From Catajapyx aquilonaris (lineage: Eukaryota), in NCBI GenBank assembly GCA_000934665.2, contig JYFJ02000077.1:62001-126000 (forward strand): a DNA stretch of 64,000 bases. Direction: 5' to 3'. Made by a program: the position numbers and the translations under genes. A model generated the notes under the pieces. That model was not told where the DNA came from. It did not search any database and saw only the letters and a list, made by a program, of their open reading frames with translations. Position 1 is the stretch's first letter. Each line of letters starts with the position of its first letter. Positions 16,181 through 63,100 of the stretch are shown piece by piece.

Positions 16181-19100
16181 TGCTGCTGGGTTCATTCAGC
16201 ATTTGGCCAGGATTTCTTATCGGGAAGGATCTCGCCTGGCTGGCCGGATCATTCGGACCAGGACGAGTCACAGGACGAAGGTGGTCCTTCTAAATTATCT
16301 GCAGGAAAAGGGTGGATTAGGTGTAGGCAAGGAGAAATAAAGGAAGGTTCAGATCGTGACTCACCCTTTTGCCTTATTTGTTAGGGCAGATCTCACAGTC
16401 TCCTACTCACACGAAAATGACACGATAACTTGCTCGAAGAAATATACATAATCATGTAAAACGTCACAACCTAAGCTCCACAAAGTATAGCCTACCCCTA
16501 TTGTACAGTACGCGGTAACTAGCAAATGTACAAGGCAGCAGGGCCATTATATTTATAAGGAACCACAGTCATTCAATTCAATTTGACGATGGTATTATTT
16601 TCTCGTATGACAGTGTGTCACCATCCAATGTCGGCAAATGGCATATTAATTAAAACAGCTGTGATGTTGCTGGTGACCTATTTTTTTGTTCTGGCATTGG
16701 ATTTATGAATGGAGTCACTTTGCTTGAATTTTTGCATGAAACTCTCAAATTGCCTATTCCCTATTGCTCCTGAAGTGTGTGAATAAACTCGGGAAACCTT
16801 CAAGAGCTGAGGGAAGAGGGAACAAGTAAATATTATACACAAAGAAATCAACATACATTGCCTCAGGTACACTTCCTTAGAACAGTTAGAAGTTGTATCA
16901 TTAATCATGTGTGTGTATATTGCTTTCAGATAAAGTCAGAGGATGCTGTGAGCTTAAAGCAGGCACCAGTGATGGTTCTTATGACAGCCGTTGCAATGAC
17001 AAGAGGCTTCTCTCTGTTTAGCTCCAAGGAAGAATTCCCCAAGAAGGATGGGAAAGCCATAACCCTCTCCAAGGGACGGGTGACAGATATTATCAAGAAA
17101 GCAGACGAGTACTATGATCAGAGTCAACCCGAGGCCACCTATGACTTGCTGAAACCCTTGGCAGTGAGACACTATTTTATTTCCACATGAGGCATCAGTT
17201 TATTTCTCTTGATAGAAAGGGATGCTGTCAGTATTGACCCCAACTTTAACGTTTTTTGAGGACAGGATTTAAAAGGTGCAATAGTTTACTCCAGAAAGCT
17301 TTTTAACCCACCAGACCCATACCAATGTCATTCACTGTCATAATAGACCAGACCCCCAACCTCCAAGAGTATATCACATTGCCACGTACCAAATCTCTCT
17401 CCCCTGCCGTGCTTGTGTATCTATTCTTTAAATCCTACCCCTGATGACCTTAGGCACATGACACCTGAGAACTTGCCTGCTATCTACTAATTGTAATGTA
17501 ATAAGTTATACTTTGACATGGAAACCCACTCCAATAGCACAAGTGCAATTCAAATCCATCTGCTCACATGATGCAACACTTCCTTACTAATTTCTTTTAA
17601 TTTCCTTCCAATGATGCTAAAGGATAGTGAGGTATTTAATCATTTTCAGGCTGTGATTAGTCACTTGCTAATTAACCCATGCAATTTTCCAAAGGAGACG
17701 GGATTAGATGAGGTTCTGTGGCGTTTGGCCAGGACTACGTACGAGCTTTCAAAACAACCGCAGCATTCTGCAGAGGAAACAAAAGCACTTGTGTTTGAGG
17801 CTTTTGAGTATGTGCAAAAAGCACTCGCATCCAACCCCTCCAGTTCTCCTGCGCACAAGTGGATGTCTATCCTTCTGGACAAGTCAAGTGCCTACCATGG
17901 GATGAAAGAGAGAATTACCCAATCACCCAACGTCAAGGAACACATGATAGTAAGGGAGTAATATTGCATGATGTGTTGCGGACATGTCCTTCATTCTCCC
18001 TTTCTTACACAGAAAGCCATGACTCTGAACCCTCATGATGCAACCACAGTTTACCTCTTGGGCTACTGGTGCTATTCAGTGGCAGACCTTCCATGGTACC
18101 AACGGAAGATAGCCTCAGCTGTCTTTGCAACTCCACCCGAGTCCAGCTACTCAGAGGCCCTCAACTACTTCCTGAAGGCTGAAAATATGGACCCTTACTT
18201 CTACAGGTATGTGCAGACAACAAATCTACGTGGGTTAACTTGGAACCTTACTGTACTGGAGCATTACTTTTAAACGTTATCTACAGCTTTCCTGTTACTT
18301 CGGAAATCTCCCAAATTTACTTATTTCTCGCAAAGTACGACGATTGCAGAAACTGCGTGTGGCATGGTTCTCAAGGTTAATATTCTGTATATTTTAACGT
18401 ATTTCATAACTAAATCAGCACAACAATTGGCCAGCAGTTCTCAAATTTTGAGTTTTTTACAGCGATCTTTTTGGAAATATTTAGGAACTTCTAGAGGAGG
18501 AAAATTGTTCCAAACACATTCATAGTATTTTTAATGAACGTGTAAGTGTAGCTGTTATTATTTTGTAAAATATCTTTTCCTTATCTTCAGAGTACGTGTA
18601 AGTGAAAATCTAGGCGATGGCCTAACGGTTGGCCAGTAGTACATGAATTTCAAGTTATTACCTTTGAAAATTAATTTAGGGACTTCTAGACAAGGAAAAT
18701 TGTTTCCAAGATAATTATGTATGTTATGTTTTCCATGAACGTGTAAGTATAGATGTTATTATTTGTAAAATATCTTGTAATTATCTTCCTAATCTAGAAG
18801 TCCCTAAATTAATTTCACCCAGATTTTGGCTTGCATGTACAGTAAGTACTGTACATGCAAGCCGAAATCTAGGTGATGGCAGTATAGCTATACTCTGTGG
18901 CGATCCTTTCGGAAATTAATTTAGGGACTTCTAGATTAGGAAAATTGTTCCAAACACATATATAGCGTAGATCACGAACGTGTAAGTATAGTTGTTATTA
19001 TTGGTAAAATATCTTATTTTTTATCTTCAGAGTACATGTAAGTTTTAACAGAAACGAAAATCTAGGCGATGTGGTATAGCTGGTAGCGAAGGAGTTAAAG

Positions 19101-19716: not shown

Positions 19717-20533
19717 GGGTATGAGGGTCTCATAACAAGCAATAATACTGAAGTATTTTTAAGTGATATATTTTGATTGATCATGTATTGGGGGAACATG
19801 CTGAAGTATTGAAATATCTGTATTATAATTTTTTCACATTTCAATGAAAGCTGATCACAGCCATATGACAAACAAATATAACAATCCAGGGATACAGGAG
19901 AAGAAATTACGACACAAAGATGTACAGTAATCAAATAATCATTGGGTTCCAATTTGCCCTGTTTTGCCAGCCAATTTCTTCTTGCCAGCAAATATAACAA
20001 GCAGGATTGGAAACCACGGGTCTTTGTGGAATGTATTAAAAACAAAAGATTTACATTGTGATGTACAGAAAGTGCAAATAAAAATTTCCAATACCTATTA
20101 ACGTGACATAAATACTTTGTGAAATACTTCGAAAAATAGTTTTCAGTCCTAACCAAACAGGCTAGATGGCAGCGGGAATAAAATCTTTGGCAAACTGCAA
20201 AATAAAATCTCTAAAAGATATTTTAACAGTGATGTGTAAAATCAACCTGAAAAATGGGAATAAAAACTAAGCTCCCATTTAAGTAAACTGTATAGGGAAG
20301 ACAAATATCTCCTTAGGAGAGAAAAAAATTAGAAAACTGCACATTAAAAATTTTTAAAGACGGGTATGCTTTAGTGATTCTGCGATATAAACTTTCACTT
20401 TTTACAAATAGTACGCAAACATGTAAATTTGGGCAGTAAATGGATAATTTTGGGGAGTGACAGGTGACCAATTTATTGTCACCACTGACAATAAATGGCT
20501 ATTATTAATCTCACTGAATCATTAGTGAGCACC

Positions 20534-23500
20534 TTACAGCCCACCACCACTCCTCTCAACAGTGATGGCCTTTTTCCTCTTCTCCTGCATCTGCATCTGC
20601 TCCTCCATTTCTGCAATCTTTGCAAATCTTGAATGGACCACGGAACCAGACTTTATGGCAGACATCATCTGCAGGAAGAGAATGCAGTGTTATCATATTG
20701 ACAGCATGCAGAAATGTTTATGCACTTGCAAATGATCATTACAGGCTGCATAATGCAAAGGGACAGAGCAAATGGTAAGATATGAACCTTGCAACAGTCA
20801 TGCTAACAGTAAGGAAAAAAGTCTGACAATTAAAAATTGCCTGTAAAAAATATTTGTTTTCAAAATGGCTACTGACTTTGAAAGAAATATGCACAGTAAA
20901 AAGCAGAAAATAATAAATTCTGTAATTGCTATTTGACAAGTCTGGGCATAGCACATTAAATTTTAAGTTCAATCTTCAAATAAGAATCAATGCAATAAAT
21001 TAAAAAATGAATTTCAAATAATTGCAACATATAAAGAGGGAAACTTTGTAGAACATAACTGCACCATCAAATAATTGTGCTGCAATCTTACTGATGTACA
21101 TAAACTTGTATATTAATGTCACGATGTAGCACAAAAAATATGATGGTACAGTGTGTCCTATTCCCAAAATGCTATATAAAAACATGCACATGTGGGGACA
21201 GAAAACAGGCTTGGAAGTAGCTCATAAATATGTTAGAAAATATAGTCATAGGGTAAAGAACCAAGACCACTGCAAACCAAACCACCAAAAGTAGTCCTGG
21301 AATGAAAAGGATTTAGTTTCCTCGATTGCTTCAAGTCCTGAATGATAGGGTATGTGGGTTTGGTGGAGTCACCCATCCCCTAATCATCTCATGCAAAAAA
21401 AAGAGGAAGAAAAGTCACTGGTGTATACATAAGCCTGAACACAATTAACTAGCTTATTAGAGGTCCCAATTTTCATACAAAATTGTAAAAACATGTAAAG
21501 GGAGCATTTCAAAATTAAAATGCTGCAATCCATAGCAAAAAAGCACATGGAATGTGCAATACCAGCTCTTCTGGCTGCAGTAGTGTAATACAGTGACAAT
21601 AGCAATACTCAACTGCACACTGCAATTTTGGCTTTTTTTAAAAAAAAGCCAGCAGGTCACAAAATTGCAAATCTGGGGCTACCCACGTATTACATATCCC
21701 TACGTTTTTAGAAAATCATGACTAATAGAAGTGTCTCTCTCTTTACACTGTAGAACTTGTTTCTGGGTGCATTGTGCTACTGAAAGTAGCACATAAATTC
21801 TGGTCTTTGCCCTTGTTACTGTTTGATTTGCTGTCCCCCACAATGACAGTAATAACAAGGGCTAACCTGGGGGCTGAGAATTTACCTTCAGTGATAGTGT
21901 GATACGAGGCATAAGACAAGCAAAGTATAAAGCAATATGACGAGGGATTCAAAATCAAAAGTAGTACTGTGTAATTTATGAATCAGGTGATTATGTTACA
22001 TTGATGGAATGCAAAAGATATAAGAGCCCAATGTTTTGAAGATCAAGAAGGGTAGTTGGACAACAGACATGCCACGAGACAACTCAAATAACAAAAGCCA
22101 AATAAGGGAACATCCAGTCTTGCAAGTCCATCTGAAAAATCCCAAATTTCAGGTCTACCTCCAGGTATTCTTCCAACTCGACCTGTCCATTCATGTTTGT
22201 GTCAAGTTCCCTCAGAATCTCATGGATGGTCTCACCAGACACGTTCTCTCCCGCTTTCTGAAATCACAAGCACCCCCCACACGTTTAAGCAGCTCAATAA
22301 AAGTTTTGATTTACCTGGAGGAATGTGGAGAGATCTATCTGCCCATGACAGTCAGGGTCCACTTCATTCAGCACAGTGTGCATGTGAGTCGTGCCAAGGT
22401 TCTTGCCCTCCTCTACCTGAACATTGTATCATTTTTTGTCATTATTTAATTTTGTTTTGGTAGTGAAATTAGCAAATATTGGAAACACAGGAGTTTCCAA
22501 AGTCAGTGAATGTCATACTGAAATCTACCTATAAAAATAGTGGAAGATGTAATGTTGCCAGTGTCAAATGCATTTTTCACAAGATCCCTGTTCAATAAAT
22601 TTCCAAGTTAAAAACTGACTTCACTGAATTGCTATGAGCACATCCAAAAGGAACATCTACAGCATGTGAAAATACTAGCATGTACCCGCTTGCTTGTGGA
22701 ACTACAAGGTTGAAGGTCAGTAATAATCGGGTGTTGTTAATATTGGCTATCAACCCCTGCAAGTTCATGTCCAATAATTCTGACACCCTATTACTGTGTT
22801 GAGAAGGTATTTTCACATGTAAATGTTTCCCTGTGTTGCATTTCAAGCCTGTGTGGCATAAGGAAAAGTTACAACATAATGTGGCATTGGCAAGCTCGAG
22901 TTAAATTACAACTTTATACCTGCAATAATGATTCTGTATAAACAAATTCGTGAATGTAAAAGGACCCATTTAGGCTACCGAGTATTCCAGATGGATAAAT
23001 CATTAACTGGGATCAGGTAAGTAAGGTACTTAAAAGCCTCCCATATGCTGCCACATCAATGGCACGTTCACTGTTGTTCTCAATGAACCAGGAAGATTTT
23101 TCCTAATTGTGTATCTACAGGATATCTAACCAACATCAACAGTGCAGAAGAAATGCGGACAGACATGACTCCTACAATTAATCGCAAAGTGGGCTGCAAG
23201 TTCTACGGCAATAATAACTTTCAAATATTCTTATAATCTGCAATCACTTTTGTAAACCTGCAAACAGACTAAATTTTTTCATAGCAGAAATTGTCAGAAG
23301 AAGCAAGAAACAAAACATTATCCATAGACTGACACAATGGTACAGATCTCTTCATAAGATTGTAATAACCTTGCAAAATTATTTCACAAAGCTCAAGGAG
23401 ATACATTATGGTGCAAAATTTCTACATTAACTTAAATTCTGACATTTGTTGCTTTTGAAGGAAAAAAAAAAACTATCAGCATTCTGCAGCATATTCTTAC

Positions 23501-26500
23501 TGCATAGGAGGACCTACATTATACCAAGGTTCTTCCAAATGTCATGGATAAAAATTATGGAGTTTTAAAAAGAGTTTTCAAGGCAGAATAGATATAGCAA
23601 ATAAATTTTTTATAATCCAAGAAAGTTTTCCTCCAAAACAATTAAGTTCTTATTCTGCCATGGAGTTTGGTTTTACTAAATTAACATGACAATTGACCAA
23701 GGGCAAAAGTACAAGAGTTGATTTCCTGAACCATATAATTGTTATGTGCAGGTCTTACCATCATCACCCATTCACTCACCTGGAAGCTGCGCCTGATGTC
23801 ATTGATTGAGATGTATCCCTTGCGGTCCTTGTCCAGAGACTCAAACCTCTTGATGTATGATGCAATCTCTATCTTTGTGAGATTGATGGGGAGAGAATCC
23901 CTGCAGGCTCTATTCACATTCTGGCCCATTTCTGCCTTCAGGAAATCTTGGGCAGCCTTCAGTTGCTTCTAAAATCACAAACGGAAGAACACCAAAATGT
24001 ACGCCCTAGATCAACAATCATTCTCACCTTCTTCTCTGCATCATTCCACTTGAGCTCTTCAGCCATAATTCCAACAATTCTGTCAAGGGTCTCCTCACAT
24101 GCTTGGACATTAAGGAACGCAAAACGGATCCTTCTAGCAATGACATCCACTGCAGTCATGGCGTACTCCTTAACAGAGTAGCGGACCTCTGCATCAATGT
24201 AAGGAAATTCTTCATGGAGGCGACAACCTACGACAGGCCATCTTTTCCCAGTCATCCCAGCTGACTTGGCCACAGAGAAGGCCCGGTCCCCATATGTGTT
24301 AGCCAGATGTTGAGCCACCTCCGTCTCCAGTCCAAAGTCCTGCACCAGTCGAATGAACATGGTAGGTGTCCAACCATGGGCACCTTCCAAAAGCAAACCA
24401 GCTGTGCGGCACTCATGCAGAGGTTTCAGGTCACATGCTACAAGTAGGCATTTCTGACATAAGTTATACATAGTAAATTATACGTACTACAAGGTACAGA
24501 GTTAAGGCATTATTATTGTTCATTCAACTCTTGCAAGCTAATACTAATCACATCAATTTTCAAACAGTAGTGTATATGGACCCTACGGATCCATAAGCTT
24601 GCCCACAGTAATCCAGAGAGGTATTGGTGCAATTGCAGAATTGTTAGCCTCCGACTTCAATATAGTAAATTATTTTTATGTTCATTATTCCCATTTTCGA
24701 AAAAAAGAAACGGAGAATTCACTACTAAATGAAGCGCAGAACAGTAGTAAAAAGTAGTGAATTCTTAGAAGGTACCATGTCTTAAGTTTTTTAAAAAGCA
24801 CAGGATTATGTTGTAGGTTTCCACACTTCCACATTTATGCAGAAAGCAAAAATTTCACCTACCATACGTAAATTATGTCAATAAAATTAACTGCTGCCCT
24901 ATATTTATCCACGCAGAAATGTATTTTTCGCACCTGCAGATATTTTCAAACACCTGTGCAGATGTCAAAAATTTATAATTAAACAAAGCAAACTTTATGA
25001 AAAAGTACTTTAAAAAGGAATGCAATATGCACCTTTGTGACAATTAATTGTAGTATTTACTTTTTATGTTAATGACTTTGGCACCCCAGTTTTTTGGGAA
25101 AAGCCGTGATGAATATGATGATGATGACTTTCATTATAAGCCGCACTGCATCAGTTACCTTTTAATAACATCCCTTTCTCATGTTATAAATTTCATTAAC
25201 ATAACCACAACCAATATTCTGCAAAAGGAAAAGGAAAAGGAAAAGAATTTTAAAATGGCACATACCAATTATAGCCTCATCAATGGTGTCTTTGGCCATG
25301 CTTCTGTAGGTAGTCCACTTCCCACCAGCAATTGTGACCATCTTATTGTCAGAAACATGTACAATGTGGTTCCTGGCAAGGGACTGGGTGTCTGTCTTGT
25401 TTGGATTGAACACCAGAGGCCTGATTCCACTCCAGGCAGACAGAACGTCTCCTCTGCGCACCTCTAGGTCAGGGCTCAAGTAATTCTTGATCTCTTTCAA
25501 TATGAACTGGATATCTTCCTCTGTTGGGGATGGGTGGTGAGTCACATCACACGGGGTGTCTGTAGTCCCTGCTATTGTCACCTTCTGCCATGGGAGGAAG
25601 AAGATCACACGGCCATCAGATGTGGAAGGGTCAAGGAGCCCCATCTCTGCAGGGCTAAACAGGAAAATGGGAACATCATTATGTTTTTAAAAATAATCCA
25701 TCCTTCAGTAAATAATCTGCCATGTTGAAATTAACAACAATTACTTTTTGAGAAACCCTGCTGGAAATGATCATTAAAAATTACTTTAGGAGATAAAACA
25801 ATGTCTGGTGTAATAATATTCAGTCCACAAATCAAACTCTGGCTCAATTGAGTAATGATTCAGATCTTTCTAAAACTGGTCCCAACCTGTAATATCCAGG
25901 CAGAGTGATATGTACACCAGCACTGGGTGCACAGATCTCCTGAACCTTTGGGTCATCCATCTTCCTGAGAGAGTCTGTGAATGGCCCTGTGGCATTGATG
26001 ACACATTTTGCCTTCACATCCCATTCCTTCCCTGTTATCTCGTCCCTCATACGAGCCCCACAAATCCGCTGTCCATCAGGAGTCTTGCACTTCAGGAGGC
26101 TCGTGACCTTCACATGGTTGGCTATTGTAGCTCCATACCTTGCGGCAGTCAGGGCAATTGTTAGGTTCATCCGCGCATCATTGTGCTGCCCTTGAAAATA
26201 TATTTGAGGGGTCAAACATCAGAAAACATTCACAACAAAATGCAGATGTTCATGAACTTTTGAAATTAACTTCCCTGCTCTAGCATGCCTTTGAACAATA
26301 CATGATTCACCGCATATTTTTCTATTGCCTTCCAAACAATACCAGTAACAAAGGAAGGCACTGATTTCGACTTATTTACAATCTAGATCCAAGTCTACAT
26401 AAAAAAACATCCCATCCTTGGTCTGTATTTCAATATGCAAAATATCAAAAACGTAATTTAATAAAAATAAGGCAGTCAAATTTCCTTTATTTGAATATTC

Positions 26501-29437
26501 AGGTTACATTTTAAAAAATTAATTTATTAATTAATTTAAAAAAAAACTGTTGCAGATCAATGTGAAGCAATTCACCTAACGGTAAGACCTCCCTAGATGC
26601 TAAAATAATTTCCATTGATGCAAAACATCTCTGGCACATATCCCACATTTTGAATCCTTGTGCCCTAACAATTCCTCACCTAATGGGCCCACATCATCTT
26701 CTAAAAAGCAACTAAACTAAGCATCCTCACTCACCATCATAATAGACGAGAGCCCCACAGAGCCTGTCCCCACGAAGCATAGGGAACTTCTCCAGGGCCT
26801 CTGCTTTGGGCAGATAGTAGGAGGACTTCAGGCACTTTGCTCCAGCCACAATGTCATAGGCCTTGATCCCAACCCAGTAGTATGGTACCTGCCACCACTT
26901 GTACACTGGAAGCATTATGGGCAGGGGGTAGGAGAGGTGGGGGGCAATCTCCAGTAGGTTGGCTCTTTCAAACAGAGCCTCCTTCACCATGTTGTACTGC
27001 TCAACATCAAACTGCATGATGGCCTTCTGCAAGTAGCGCACTCCTCCATGGATCAGCTTGGTGCTGCGGCTGCTTGTCCCAGATGAAAAGTCGTCCATGT
27101 CCACCAAGGCCGTCTTCAGGCCTAAATGGCAAGCAACCTCTCACATTTGGGAAAACTATGTTGCAAATAAACTACAAAATAAAAAGAGAACTTCACTGAC
27201 CCCTGGTGACAGCATCAACAGCACATCCTGCCCCAGTAGCCCCCCCTCCAACTACCAGGACATCGAAATGGGTCTTTCGGAGGTTCTCCAGGTGTTCGGC
27301 TCTACTTAGCAGAGGTTGTGTTGGGCGTGTCTTCATGCGATCAGTAGCAGTCACATGGACAAAGGTTTTCTGGAGGAAAAATTACCATAGTAGTCAAAAC
27401 CAAACTGTTAATTATGTTAGCGTTTACTAATACAAAAAATCATCACATAATATAAATTCCTGTAGTGAATGTGGATTCAAAATTCACAATGAAATGAGGC
27501 AACAAAACTTAGGGAACTATTAGATTTGTGCAAGATGTATTTGAATACCTCACGGGAAGAACGATCAAGGTTCACCTCAGGTGAAACTGAGATATTCAAA
27601 TTTCAAATTTCAAAGGCCCATATAAGGTACTATAGAGTATAGTCAATCCTACTTTCGGGGCCTTCCATAGTGACCTATGATCATTACTCCATGACCACGA
27701 CCACGGTCTTAGAAGAATAGGTTTGGACACTCGCCACCATCTTGCATGCCACTAACCCATTCAGTATTGGCACTAGTATATCACCTTGTGGAACTCGCTG
27801 AGTGATAGCGACTAGCGAGCCTGATGGTACTATCAGTCCAACAAGAATTGTCGCAGCGGCAGCGCACGAACTACAATCTACGAGCACAGGTATACGAGAG
27901 ACTGTAGTTCGTGCGCTGCCGCTTGCGACAATTCTTGTTGGACACCAGGTACAACTATGCACCTTGGTGTATCGCTATCGGTAACGATCGGTAGCTAGGT
28001 GTTGATGCATAGTTGTACCGTCAGGATCGCTAGTCGCTATGACTTGGCGAGTTCCACAGCGTGATTCCATTGCAGATATACTATAGCGCCAATGCGGGAA
28101 GGGCTAATGGCACAGCTGTTTATATTAGCCTGGGATAGAAGTCTCCAGAGGCTGACCACGACCAAACCATCATATTCTATGCTAGTGAAACTGTCTTCTG
28201 AGATGTGGAACTCATTTTTGACTAAAAGTGGGCCTTGATCGTTCGAGGTCTTCATTTAGTTTTAGAAGACTGCTGATGTGTGAAGTGTAGTCATTTCTGT
28301 CTCTTGTCATGTCAGTTCTATTCTAAAAGATAAATGCATTTTATGAAACAGATTGTGTGAGCACTGAAATTATCTAGCTTATACAAGGTCAGTTTTTGTG
28401 ATTAGTCAAAGAGATAAAAAAGCTATGCCATGTTGAGCTTCTCGCTGATGGCCAGTTAAAATGAAATCACCAAAGTAAAGCATACAAACACGGGCGGCAT
28501 GGTGGTCTAGCCGTTACGCCGCTGGCCAGCCAAGCGGGAGGCCGGGGTTCAAATCCCGTCCCCGTCACCTCTGCTTGGCCGGGTCTTTTTCCGCTTTTCA
28601 CCCGACATGCCGGAGCAGAATTGCACTCCCTTCTCTGCTCGGGGCCAGGAGAAAAGGCCTGGTGTTAAAGAATGTCAGAAATGGCTATCGCACGGCGCCC
28701 TCCCTTGGGAACTTCCCCTTCCCCCCTAAGAGGGCCACGAGCTCTATCACGGGGTAACAAAAAAAAAAAAAAAAAGCATACAAATGACTTTCACAAAGAC
28801 TCTGTTGTGTACAGCAGCACCGCACCACAAAAAAACAAGGATGCAGTGCACATTATGGAGGTTACATTATAATGATGCACTGCAATATACTATTACAGCA
28901 TGTCAAGGTAATATTAATTGAAAATAATATTTATTACTTGAATCGTAGTTCTCTTCACACTAGTCCTAATAAACAATGTGTAATGTATGGAAATACTGAA
29001 GAATTCCAGCGAATACATCAATTTGTAAAAGGTAGCTCTATGTCTACGTGTATATGCATTCAAAATTTTCATTACCATGACCATTCCTGTATTTCACTTT
29101 TAATGGTCCAGATGCTGTTACTTCAAACTCTAAAAAATCAATATAGGCATGTCTCAATATTTTTGCTTTGGAAAATCTTCCACAGTTTTTACCAAGTGGT
29201 AATTACAGGTAGTCAACTTCACTCAATCTAAAGTGCACACCTCCTAACCACAAATGCCAATCACATTATAATTCACAGGAGAAATTTAATCATGTGTATA
29301 TTTGCAAACTGCTGTGAAAGAAATCAAGACCTCTAACTGACCTCTGCATGCCGATTGCTGTTGAGGTAATAGTTGGCAACATATGCTGTTCCTCCCAGTG
29401 CCACTGTCCCGATAAAAATCTTCCTTATGCGCGACAT
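20534..29437 (-). CDS. GPD2: Mitochondrial FAD-dependent glycerol-3-phosphate dehydrogenase
   Basis: Exons in transcript order: 29437-29342, 27369-27201, 27121-26735, 26190-25887, 25654-25266, 24437-24028, 23968-23780, [22416-22315 and/or 22257-22159], 20668-20534. Motifs DVLVVGGGATGAG, SSGTSSRSTKLIHGGVRYL, YYDGQHNDAR, AGGKWTTYR, EF-hand region, C-terminal VERSGGGL. Acceptor at 29495 implies an upstream UTR exon. Confidence 0.96.
22159..22257 (-). CDS. GPD2: GPD2 EF-hand 2 exon, canonical variant
   Basis: ttcag|KAGENVSGETIHEILRELDTNMNGQVELEEYLE|gtagac; 99 nt, phase 0-0. Confidence 0.9.
22315..22416 (-). CDS. GPD2: GPD2 EF-hand 2 exon, duplicated degenerate variant
   Basis: gttcag|VEEGKNLGTTHMHTVLNEVDPDCHGQIDLSTFLQ|gtaaat; 102 nt, phase 0-0, open frame, aligns with the neighbouring exon. 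Confidence 0.75.
27748..28112. repeat. Nested multi-arm inverted repeat (foldback element) in a GPD2 intron
   Basis: Outer arms about 27748-27830 / 28015-28112; inner ~40-bp stem about 27836-27876 / 27903-27943; a third stem ggtacaactatgca / tgcatagttgtacc. Confidence 0.8.
28489..28772 (+). mobile_element. tRNA-derived SINE with A tail and target-site duplication
   Basis: A box TGGTCTAGCCG (28503), B box GGTTCAAATCC (28546), unrelated body, A-run at 28759-28775, and AAAGCATACAAA at 28477-28488 and 28773-28784. Confidence 0.9.
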
Positions 29438-60100: not shown

Positions 60101-63100
60101 GTCAGCAATGGGCAGTAAGTTCTTTGGCCAACAGTAAAAGTCGCAGAAAATGGACCTGTTCAATGCCACAGGCAATTTCATTTTGTGGTAGGCCTATTAA
60201 ATCGAATCGGCTGACATGGAAATGTATTTATTGAGAAGTTACCAATATATACGTACAGTATATTCACACCTGATATCCATTACCCAGATGTCATTGTATC
60301 TGTGTTTAGAAGTTGTGTTTTAAAAATTATGACCGAAATATCTTGATGACGAGAACTGGAATTCTAATGCTGTATATTTCAAATTAATTCTTTTTATAAA
60401 CGAAGGTGAAGCTTGTCTCTAAAGGTAGGCCTATTCTTTCACATTACTTAGCATAAAATTATGAAAATATATATGAGTGAAACTGCACAAGAACGTTAGA
60501 AAACTAACTAAAACAAGTGCGCAGTTGGATTATTCGAAATTCCTACAAAAATCTGAGATTACAAGAGAGTAAAATACACTCAGCCTCCCATGGGAAATCC
60601 TCATGAGTCTAAAATAATTTGGATACAGCTTTGTATATTCCCACTGATTGATTGCCAAATCCTGTCCCATGAGGAGCTAATTAATTACGCCAACTTGCAG
60701 GATCCCCGGAAACACCCAGAGAAAGGCAAGGACGAAGGCCACGAGGAAGAAGACGAAGAGAAGCTGAGGGCGATGTCTGGACTGACCCGCACTGGCCGTT
60801 GGTTTGGAGGCCTCATAAATGACCTCAAGCGGAAAAAGCCATGGTAAGTGTCGCATTCTACCCACTGGACCCTCCAAAAGAGTATGGGAAGACGAAACTA
60901 TGGGACTTCCCATTCAAATTTTCAGGTATTTCTCGGACTTTAAGGACGCCTTGTCCACTCAGTGCATAGCCAGTTGGATTTTCCTCTATTTTGCGTGTCT
61001 GACCCCGATTATCACGTTCGGAGGTCTGTTGGGAGAGGCCACCAAACAGAACATGGCCGCCATCGAATCTTTGGTGTCTGGTTTTGTGTGCGGAATTGGA
61101 TATGGTTTCTTCTCTGGACAACCACTCACTTTGCTGGGCTCCACGGGACCCGTACTGGTTTTTGAAACCATAGTGTATGACTTTTGCCAGTAAGTACCAG
61201 ACAACTCATTTTCAGATTGGTGGGGACATCAACTGGCAAAAAAAACACAAATGATAAATTTCATTGCAGTGGGCAAGATTGGGATTACTTGTCCTTTCGA
61301 CTGTGGATAGGACTGTGGATGGCACTGATTCTACTAATATTAGTTGCTCTGGATGCGAGCGCTTTTGTGTGTTACATCACTCGTTTCACGGAAGAAAACT
61401 TTGCCACTTTAATTGCCTTCATTTTTATTTATAAGGTGAGCGCCTCTGCTGTTTTAATAGGAATTAGTTACTCACAAAATCTCCTTTTTAGGCTGTGGAA
61501 AAAGTGGCAATGATCGGATATAAGCACCCTTATAATGTGCAATCTGACGTTGAATTTTATTCAAGCTGCAGTTGCTCACCCACAGAAAACAGCACGGGTG
61601 TGGACTACACCTTTAACTGGACTACCGTTCACAGATTGGACTGTACACCTGTAAGTTCTGTTCAGCCAGACACTGACGATTTATTTTCAGTAAGAAAAGC
61701 TCGTTACTGACATTCTTTCTCCCCGTCATTGCAGAAATACAATGGTACTCTCGAAGGAGTTGGTTGTGACTATGAGTCTGATGTGTTTCTTATGTCAGTT
61801 CTTTTGTTCATGGGAACTTTCTCTGTTTCCATCATTTTAAAGGACTTTAAAAATTCGTCCTTCTTCCCAACAAAAGTGAGTGTGGTCAAAAATGATCGGG
61901 TACCTCTAGCCTTGTCACCTTTGTTATCTGAGCTGTTCTTCTTGCAGATGCGCGGCTTCATCAGCGATTTTGCAGTCATCATTGCTATCTTCTCCATGAG
62001 CATTTTGGACATGTGCATGGGCATCAGCACTCCAAAACTCCAGGTACACAGTCATGTTATATTAGAAGTGCTTATTCAGCAGGATAATCATACATTTATG
62101 ACATCATCTGGTAGGTTCCTGAAACTTTGACACCGACTGACCCTACCAAGCGCACCTGGCTCATTCCTCTTTTTGGACTGGAAGGGAATAACCCCTGGTG
62201 GACACCACTCATAGCTCCTATTCCAGCACTTTTGGCCACAATCCTTATTTTTATGGATCAACAGATAACTGCGGTCATCGTCAACAGAAAGGAGCACAAA
62301 CTAAAGGTAGTGTATTGATATTCCTTCCTATTGTGTGGGTTCTTACTAGCATTCTTGGATTTACAATGAAAACAGAAAGGCTGTGGGTACCACTTGGATC
62401 TCTTTATCTTGGCCATCCTGATCGTCATATGCAGCATTATGGGTTTGCCATGGTTTGTAGCAGCTACTGTACTGTCCATAAATCATGTAAATTCCCTCAA
62501 GATGGAATCAGAATGTGCAGCTCCAGGTGAAAAACCCCAATTCTTGGGTGTCAGGTAGGAAAATATTTTTGTTATTATTTTCATAACGCTGTTTTGAAAG
62601 AGCTGCGCCTAATCATAGAATTCCACCTCCAGGGAACAACGTGCCACACACATCTTAATATTCCTCATGATTGGATTGTCTGTCTTGTTGACACCTCTTC
62701 TGAAACACATTCCAATGCCAGTTCTCTTTGGAGTATTCCTGTACATGGGAATTGCTTCTCTAAAGGGACTCCAGTTTTTCGACAGACTCTTGATCATGCT
62801 CATGCCTGGCAAGTACCAGCCGGACTTCATGTTTCTGCGGCAGGTAAGGTCTGCCTGAATCGAAGGCCGTCATAAGATCTTATGATCGTAATTATTCTGC
62901 AGGTGCCTCTGAGACGAGTCCACTTCTACACTTTAATCCAGCTGACTTGTCTGATAATGCTTTGGGTCATCAAGTCATTCAAGCAAACATCCATCTTGTT
63001 CCCTCTTATGGTTTGTGGTTACTACCTTGTGAATTTCAATCTTATGAAAGAATTAAAGTAATCACATAAGTGTACATCTTTCAGCTGGTGGTCATGATTG

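Follow-up and report, generated by a model that had tools for sequence, protein, structure and literature searches.

The closest described counterparts of the exon pair reported here, as presented in the parts of the cited papers on which we draw, lie in other proteins. Vertebrate OGDH, which like GPD2 is a mitochondrial dehydrogenase, carries tandem homologous exons, 4a and 4b, with a short intron between them (PMC7969005, PMC9177970), and the choice of exon switches Ca2+ activation, one of the two bearing an acidic Ca2+ motif (PMC7969005). In alpha-actinin, tandem alternative exons encode part of an EF-hand and alter Ca2+ sensitivity (PMC9177970, PMC7969005, PMC4435478), and the P/Q-type Ca2+ channel has duplicated alternative exons in an EF-hand-like region, with altered Ca2+-dependent regulation (PMC9177970). 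GPD2 goes unmentioned in the main texts of PMC7969005 and PMC9177970. For GPD2 itself, Ca2+ lowers the Km, 'possibly' by way of a calmodulin-like domain at the C terminus, according to the passages of PMC11148179 used here, which cite Hansford and Chappell 1967 on blowfly mitochondria for the Ca2+ activation of glycerophosphate oxidation. Here we analyse a 64,000-nucleotide stretch of DNA from Catajapyx aquilonaris (hereafter the window; contig JYFJ02000077.1, positions 62,001 to 126,000 of the forward strand, assembly GCA_000934665.2), in which the GPD2/Gpo1 gene contains two adjacent exons, A and B, for the second of its two C-terminal EF-hands.

We consider it probable, at roughly 0.6, that A and B are tandem homologous alternative exons for EF-hand 2 of GPD2/Gpo1, with a divergent exon A upstream and a canonical exon B downstream, and that they represent a pair found across Pancrustacea. 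The elements concerned are listed below by their positions in the window, with a slash marking exon borders and splice joints:

20534..27354, minus strand: GPD2/Gpo1 gene for mitochondrial FAD-dependent glycerol-3-phosphate dehydrogenase, homology-mapped part; the first coding exon(s) lie beyond the mapped range
23969..24027, minus strand: constitutive 59-nt intron, joint 23968/24028, size control for the 57-nt spacer
23780..23968, minus strand: EF-hand-1 exon, loop DKDRKGYISIND, ending ...INDIRRSFQ, 5' splice site CAG/GTGAGT
22417..23779, minus strand: intron upstream of exon A, 1363 nt, GC 0.347
22315..22416, minus strand: exon A, non-canonical alternative EF-hand-2 exon, 102 nt, phase 0-0, translating to VEEGKNLGTTHMHTVLNEVDPDCHGQIDLSTFLQ
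22258..22314, minus strand: spacer between A and B, a potential short intron, 57 nt, GT...AG ends, GC 0.404
22159..22257, minus strand: exon B, canonical EF-hand-2 exon, 99 nt, phase 0-0, translating to KAGENVSGETIHEILRELDTNMNGQVELEEYLE
20669..22158, minus strand: intron downstream of exon B, 1490 nt, GC 0.360, a joint of a spliced contig with GT..AG on the minus strand
20534..20668, minus strand: last coding exon, MMSAIKSGSVVHSRFAKIAEMEEQMQMQEKRKKAITVERSGGGL and then stop (MMSAIKSG...VERSGGGL)

Consistent with an earlier note on this DNA, which from the letters alone had proposed that the same segment is encoded twice, both exons align by tblastn to EF-hand 2 of GPD2. Exon B maps to EF-hand 2 of protein P0089 (69% identity, E 1e-10) and exon A, at homologous borders, to the A-type EF-hand 2 of protein P0022 (43% identity, E 5e-4 in the 64-kb window). 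The two are of similar length, share phase 0-0 and lie 57 nt apart, the adjacent-homologous-exon pattern of a mutually exclusive pair, and their peptides are identical at 10 of 33 residues. Against hidden Markov models (HMMs) of the two types, exon A scored 32.0 bits for the A type and 25.6 bits for the B type, and exon B scored 70.6 bits for the B type. The reading of A and B as homologous alternative versions of the EF-hand-2 segment of GPD2 is thus supported. On recheck, the coordinates, lengths (102 and 99 nt), 57-nt spacing, phase 0-0, splice sites and loop sequences of the earlier note were all correct, and the flanking introns, put there at about 1.4-1.5 kb, measure 1363 and 1490 nt.

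In a canonical EF-hand loop, which is 12 residues long, positions 1, 3, 5 and 9 supply oxygen ligands, position 6 is Gly, position 8 is hydrophobic and position 12 is Glu or, rarely, Asp. The exon B loop, DTNMNGQVELEE, fits this definition at every listed position; in Pfam, exon B matches EF-hand_1 (20.3 bits, E 3.7e-4), EF-hand_7 (22.4 bits) and also EF-hand_5 and EF-hand_6, the single-loop matches staying under whole-protein cut-offs because the piece is only 33 residues long. The exon A loop, DPDCHGQIDLST, fails the definition with His at position 5 and Thr at position 12, and is EF-hand-like in form, keeping Asp1, Asp3, Gly6, Ile8 and Asp9; the original description of a canonical B loop and an A loop without the position-12 acid therefore stands. 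No Pfam single-loop EF-hand model matches exon A, whose sole Pfam match is EF-hand_7 (13.1 bits, E 0.13), and a homologue search with the 44-residue stop-to-stop frame around it yielded one candidate and none scoring. A straightforward prediction from Thr12 and the Pfam result is that an isoform with this exon A would be deficient in Ca2+ binding. EF-hand 1 (loop DKDRKGYISIND; Pfam EF-hand_6, 21.6 bits, E 1.6e-4) carries Lys5 and Asp12, so the B loop is the sole canonical Ca2+ loop of the enzyme and swapping B is the most direct way to change Ca2+ control.

Both exons have open frames. Exon A is preceded by ttcAG and followed by GTAAAT, giving a good donor (5' splice site CAG/GTAAAT), and exon B is preceded by AG and followed by GTAGAC (GAG/GTAGAC), a weaker donor than that of A. 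Pyrimidines before the AG number 8 of 20 for exon A (weak), 10 of 20 for exon B (middling) and 15 of 20 for both the EF-hand-1 exon and the last exon. An acceptor as weak as that of A, at 8/20 against 15/20, fits a regulated exon and suggests that skipping is the default and that inclusion depends on activators. In composition exon A resembles an exon, its GC of 0.529 standing against 0.476-0.506 for neighbouring exons and, for the flanking introns, 0.347 and 0.360; none of 2649 intronic windows of 102 nt reaches this value (maximum 0.471).

The gene itself is identified by collinear homology. On the minus strand, tblastn exon matches of P0089 and P0022 follow one another at 27354-27199, 27134-26730, 26203-25889, 25659-25249, 24444-24022, 23968-23780, 22416-22315 or 22263-22156, and 20677-20537, with 58-80% identity overall and 65-80% for the catalytic-part exons against P0089 residues 39-592. 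The 172-residue frame just upstream of the exon pair has 901 homologues at E<=0.001 among 1807 candidates; the 120 of these matches that are listed come from arthropods and other invertebrates, bear the name mitochondrial glycerol-3-phosphate dehydrogenase or glycerophosphate oxidase 1, and carry PF01266 and PF16901 in their precomputed annotation. Outside the A/B segment, the identity of the encoded protein to the GPD2 of Daphnia, decapods and insects is 67-72%, and none of the proteins compared is a close relative. The C-terminal EF-hand pair and the tail ...ERSGGGL are present, supplied by the EF-hand-1 exon, exon B and the last exon, which ends VERSGGGL. A PDB sequence search found no eukaryotic GPD2 structure with EF-hands, the four bacterial GlpD/GlpO matches ending before the EF-hand region.

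Evidence for splicing in this animal comes from a single public run (X1, of unrecorded kind and used as assembled contigs) compared with positions 20400-24480. A spliced contig of 2738 nt at depth 72.6 has joints 20668/22159, 22257/23780 and 23968/24028, all GT..AG on the minus strand; they remove 1490 nt, 1522 nt (the upstream intron, exon A and the spacer) and 59 nt respectively, set both borders of the EF-hand-1 exon, and leave a contig that runs on through the last exon to the edge of the examined stretch. Other X1 contigs, at low depth (2-6), cover parts of the introns, and from the difference between this depth and 72.6 for the spliced contig we infer that X1 is RNA-derived. The dominant transcript thus includes exon B and passes over exon A, which makes A a non-constitutive exon. 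Two junctions predicted in the earlier note, 23780-22257 and 22159-20668, are exact joints of the spliced contig, and those predicted into exon A, or across the 57-nt spacer (22315/22257), do not occur in the X1 contigs. The bin holding exon A (22318-22454) is without cover, which is uninformative on absence since contigs lose rare variants. The spliced contig also differs from the window at two exonic positions, 24085 and 24118 (on the plus strand A>G and C>G, at depth 72.6), and X1 therefore derives from another individual or haplotype of the same species.

Whether such a pair exists in other arthropods had been left as a question, and it is in fact widely annotated there. A profile search with A-type segments returned 261 proteins at E<=0.01 among 8000 scored candidates (120 of them listed). 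The collected set of 261 proteins was classed as 137 B-only, 49 A-only, 27 A+B and 14 of a single undivided type, with 21 lacking anchors and 4 of odd length; the sample is shaped by the searches made and is biased, not a census. The A type is represented in Daphnia, decapods, one stomatopod, one amphipod, Odonata, Orthoptera, Timema, Hemiptera, Hymenoptera, Coleoptera, Neuroptera, Trichoptera, Lepidoptera and Diptera (Bradysia). An A-type exon, a B-type exon or both are present in proteins of branchiopods, malacostracans and no fewer than ten insect orders. The B type is near-invariant (for example ...GEQLHEILREIDTNMNGQVELDEYLQ); for the A type, beetles have for instance SLGMKLTDDEIHHLLSDINVTYNGQLELADYLQ, Hymenoptera ...DLSYNGQLELQDYLQ, Lepidoptera ...DVTYHGQLELQDYLQ, decapods ...DVHKHGQVEFPDYVQ and Daphnia ...DLRLNGQTDLSEFIQ. 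RefSeq lists the A and B forms as isoforms of one gene in Schistocerca (X1/X2, both 723 residues), Bradysia (X1 = B, X2 = A) and Daphnia magna (X2 = B, X1 = A). Models of 752-760 residues that include both exons are found in Cotesia, Leptopilina, Fopius, Microplitis, Vespula, Vespa, Apis cerana, Xylocopa, Bombus, Tribolium castaneum and Coccinella, and for Macrobrachium, Procambarus and Penaeus the B-only, A-only and A+B forms are all annotated; A lies upstream of B in every A+B model. Forms with neither exon are present in Macrobrachium and Procambarus (P0302, P0310, P0317).

Use of the A exon in other species is further suggested by the A-only proteins P0022, P0008, P0307, P0142 and P0046, which come from contigs of 2.3-3.5 kb. 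Because such contigs are too short for introns of the size found here, we take these proteins as cDNA evidence for A-only mRNAs. In protein listings, which do not prove absence of the duplication elsewhere, a single undivided type (DLNKNGQVEL...) is the only one seen in horseshoe crabs, spiders, three myriapod-like proteins, bivalves and Lingula. This distribution fits a duplication no younger than the ancestor shared by branchiopods, malacostracans and hexapods. An Arctia plantaginis model, P0127, reads straight from A into B with 28 extra residues, Val first and Gln last, which therefore indicates a spacer of about 84 nt in the moth; a short A-B spacer may be conserved. P0123 and P0124 were rejected as similar rulers of spacer length, their first codon not being of GT type, and only P0127 fits. 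Separately, alternative last exons replace the MMSAIKSG...ERSGGGL tail in bivalves (P0282, P0283, P0285, P0286) and Procambarus (P0015, P0313, P0318); these annotated isoforms differ after EF-hand 2, and the C-terminal regulatory region is therefore a splicing hotspot beyond the A/B pair.

The exon pair is thus already visible in the public annotation of many species and has apparently never been described or functionally studied. No paper on alternative EF-hand exons of GPD2/Gpo1 was found in a literature search that had supplements and subscription journals outside its scope. The main text of PMC3228551, on the prediction of mutually exclusive exons in Drosophila, is without mention of it, and the supplements, outside that scope, may list the Drosophila gene. 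PMC11677483, PMC11481726 and PMC6556048, in the portions available, name the enzyme and the exon types only separately.

The collected sequences allow the A-type loop to be compared with the B-type loop as a metal site. Sorting of the distinct units gave 46 of A type, 75 of B type and 12 undivided. Because the B type was delimited by Asn3-x-Asn5-Gly/Ala, B positions 3, 5 and 6 are circular and the other positions independent. Residues by loop position are as follows:

Position 1: A, Asp in only 25 of 46; B, Asp in 75 of 75
Position 6: A, Gly in 43 of 46; B, circular
Position 8: A, Leu, Met or Ile in 39 of 46; B, Val in 73 of 75
Position 9: A, Glu in 36 and Asp in 7 of 46; B, Glu in 75 of 75
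Position 11: A, Gln, Ala or Ser in 43 of 46; B, Asp or Glu in 73 of 75
Position 12: A, Asp in 42 and Glu in 4 of 46; B, Glu in 73 of 75

In 300 comparisons among 25 distinct A/B pairs, identity averaged 0.55 for the A exons and 0.826 for the B exons, and A was the lower of the two 297 times. The A type thus evolves faster than B, yet under clear constraint, to which the acidic residues at 9 and 12 are subject as well. When an EF-hand has Asp and not Glu at position 12, Ca2+ affinity falls and Mg2+ is favoured. Given this effect and the conservation of Asp12 and Glu9 in A loops, the A type in general is more likely to be a retuned metal site than a dead one, binding Ca2+ less tightly or occupied by Mg2+. 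The suggestion of a Ca2+-insensitive enzyme can therefore not be carried over to the A type as a whole, with Asp12 in 42 and Glu9 in 36 of its 46 distinct loops. The D-x-D-C-H-G start of the window A loop is shared with the A exon of a Schistocerca cluster, DTDCHGKIELAD, through ancestry or coincidence.

The earlier note had further proposed that the two exons are mutually exclusive. In its strict form this is not supported, since A-only, B-only and A+B models are annotated in arthropods, forms with neither exon in decapods, and no frame penalty separates them; the exons are therefore better described as alternative, strict exclusivity not being the rule at least as far as annotation goes. More specifically, 102 and 99 nt can each be divided by 3, the frame is kept in every one of the four A/B combinations, and policing of exclusivity by nonsense-mediated decay was rejected on this ground. 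Steric hindrance by the short spacer, of the kind that operates in OGDH and alpha-tropomyosin, was likewise rejected as a candidate, A+B forms being annotated in relatives and a 59-nt intron being spliced in the same gene, because of which 57 nt is not obviously too short; it is probably not the mechanism that enforces a choice between A and B. Of the constitutive introns put at 54-59 nt, the one confirmed is this spliced intron of 59 nt (24027-23969), and a further short intron of the GPD2 gene measures 79 nt. An inverted-repeat scan of 3251 nt, made for candidate docking and selector sites of competing RNA pairings, found 25 pairs, none long or strong and none persuasive, the best with a part in the exon unit being I9 (18 nt, 78%) and I3 (21 nt, 81%). 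I9 pairs the start of the spacer (22295-22312), just after the exon A donor, with 21952-21969 in the intron downstream of B; this pairing would loop out exon B, and it is AU-rich and at chance level for the region.

Several observations weigh against placing the window's own exon A in a working pancrustacean pair. Its mean identity is 34.5% to A types (maximum 42.4%) and 30.4% to B types (maximum 33.3%), its HMM margin for the A type is just 6.4 bits, and an approximately unbiased (AU) test leaves a clade of window A with window B unrejected (p 0.736), with the constrained tree higher in likelihood than the free one and the free search therefore poor. These values would suit an independent, lineage-specific duplicate of B that is no orthologue of the pancrustacean A exon, window A being only about 4 percentage points closer to A than to B types. 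We nevertheless regard such an origin as very improbable, because the order, borders and phase of window A are those of all A+B models, which supports orthology, and because it has the A-type states Ile8 and Ser11 at two loop positions that were unused for sorting and at which nearly all B loops differ (counts above). Its nearest tree neighbours are also all of A type, in a tree of 135 distinct 33-residue units that is of low resolution (6 of 132 inner branches well supported) and carries a long-branch warning for the placement of window A with P0022. The sequence thus weakly supports window A as an A-type orthologue, and on either view the A/B duplication is old, since the two exons share just 10 of 33 residues. 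Still further from the data lies a chance open frame with chance splice-like dinucleotides: open 34-codon windows are indeed frequent in both introns (432 of 2649), but the alignment at exact homologous borders to EF-hand 2 of GPD2 (E 5e-4) and the 32-bit A-type HMM score, taken with the exon-like composition, effectively refute it.

The remaining points against concern use of the exon. No X1 read or contig shows exon A in RNA, in one run whose contigs lose rare variants, and the spliced contig could itself come from a processed DNA copy instead of RNA. Thr12 is found in none of the 46 other distinct A loops, so that this A exon could be decaying, and the Asp12 and Glu9 of those loops speak against a general Ca2+-insensitive view. 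In this lineage exon A might accordingly be a relic, a once alternative exon that has dropped out of splicing and started to drift, its position-12 acid lost and B now constitutive. To this possibility, which we take seriously and still think improbable, belong the skipping of A in the sole transcript seen, the unmatched Thr12, the 8/20 acceptor, the weak Pfam support (13.1 bits, E 0.13) and the lack of a scoring relative for the 44-residue frame. It has to contend with an open frame and two intact splice sites, with the hydrophobic and Gly6/Gln7 positions typical of the module that exon A has kept, and with a GC content that none of the 2649 intronic windows reaches, from which any death must be recent; alternative exons with weak acceptors are, moreover, routinely absent from the contigs of one run. 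A decidedly unlikely alternative is that A is mainly joined with B through splicing of the 57-nt spacer, giving three EF-hand-like repeats and no exchange. Splicing of the 59-nt intron places 57 nt within the working range of this gene, 102+99 nt preserves the frame, 27 of the 261 collected proteins are A+B (among them RefSeq isoforms of the insects listed above and of Macrobrachium, Procambarus and Penaeus), and one assembled A+B sequence (P0014) comes from a transcript-type catalogue. Yet joint 22315/22257 was not seen in run X1, A-only forms outnumber A+B forms by 49 to 27 in a biased sample, and many A+B entries are automatic gene models.

If A and B are, as we favour, alternative EF-hand-2 exons, exon A would be an intact, maintained exon with a weak acceptor that is included only in some tissues or stages, either replacing B or joined to B. 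Its inclusion would replace or supplement the sole canonical Ca2+ loop with one that has Thr and no bidentate acid at position 12, and the A isoform would be expected to bind Ca2+ poorly or not at all, the Ca2+-dependent lowering of the Km for glycerol-3-phosphate being lost or shifted. In other arthropods, where the A loop mostly has Glu9 and Asp12, a retuned metal sensor is the likelier outcome. A more speculative extension, which we hold only tentatively and think rather doubtful, joins these ideas: an ancient splice module, older than the split of branchiopods, malacostracans and hexapods, would set, tissue by tissue, how sensitive the glycerophosphate shuttle is to metal, and the A form of this lineage could be Ca2+-blind. 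B would then be the classical Ca2+-activated enzyme, A with Asp12 would have a shifted Ca2+ threshold or be Mg2+-bound, and A+B and neither-exon forms would add further states; here, A without the position-12 acid and with Cys-His at 4-5 might respond to redox, pH or a transition metal.

Beyond the GPD2 gene, an open frame at 61711-62127 (plus strand) matches the HCO3- transporter integral membrane domain (PF00955, 72.1 bits, E 5e-20), marking an SLC4-type bicarbonate transporter gene near the right end of the window. At 17572-17958 (plus strand), an open frame that weakly matches 'Regulator of microtubule dynamics protein 1-3' (PF21033, 20.8 bits, E 2.4e-4, under the family cut-off) may belong, as an exon, to a neighbouring gene that lies downstream of GPD2.

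In insect flight muscle, the activation by Ca2+ of mitochondrial glycerophosphate oxidation is a classical point of control over the energy supply (PMC11148179). The A/B pair appears, on sequence comparison, to be a real and ancient alternative-exon module whose functional meaning is plausible and testable; two natural isoforms differing in 33 residues offer a testable handle on how an EF-hand controls the catalytic domain. If the proposal is true, arthropods may routinely make a second form of the enzyme in which the canonical Ca2+ loop is swapped for a conserved non-canonical one. The window's own added value is modest, as the pair is already in public annotation and only the canonical form is seen expressed here.

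Among known systems, the nearest to the window are the RefSeq GPD2 isoforms of Tribolium (X1/X2/X3), Schistocerca gregaria (X1/X2), Bradysia coprophila (X1/X2), Daphnia magna (X1/X2) and Penaeus, Procambarus and Macrobrachium, which concern the same gene and EF-hand-2 segment in the same A-then-B order, with exons of 33-37 codons, a near-invariant B and a divergent A. These isoforms are automatic annotations, and window A differs from them in having Thr12 in place of Asp or Glu and a mean identity of 34.5% to other A exons. In alpha-actinin the Ca2+-sensitive isoform is the non-muscle form and the Ca2+-insensitive one the smooth-muscle form, and the EF-hand-like exons of the P/Q-type Ca2+ channel are numbered 37a/37b. 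As far as the sources introduced above describe them, alpha-actinin differs from GPD2 as a vertebrate cytoskeletal protein with known PTB and branch-point regulation, and the P/Q-type protein is an ion channel that senses Ca2+ via calmodulin and not through a direct enzyme EF-hand. OGDH is another enzyme, with a DADLD motif called EF-hand-like, and in the account given by the relevant parts of PMC7969005 its exclusivity follows from distant branch points under a steric threshold of about 50 nt, whereas the GPD2 gene splices a 59-nt intron. If our reading of the pair is true, splicing would set the coupling of the glycerophosphate shuttle to Ca2+ signals, in parallel to the Ca2+-sensitive and Ca2+-insensitive forms of vertebrate OGDH.

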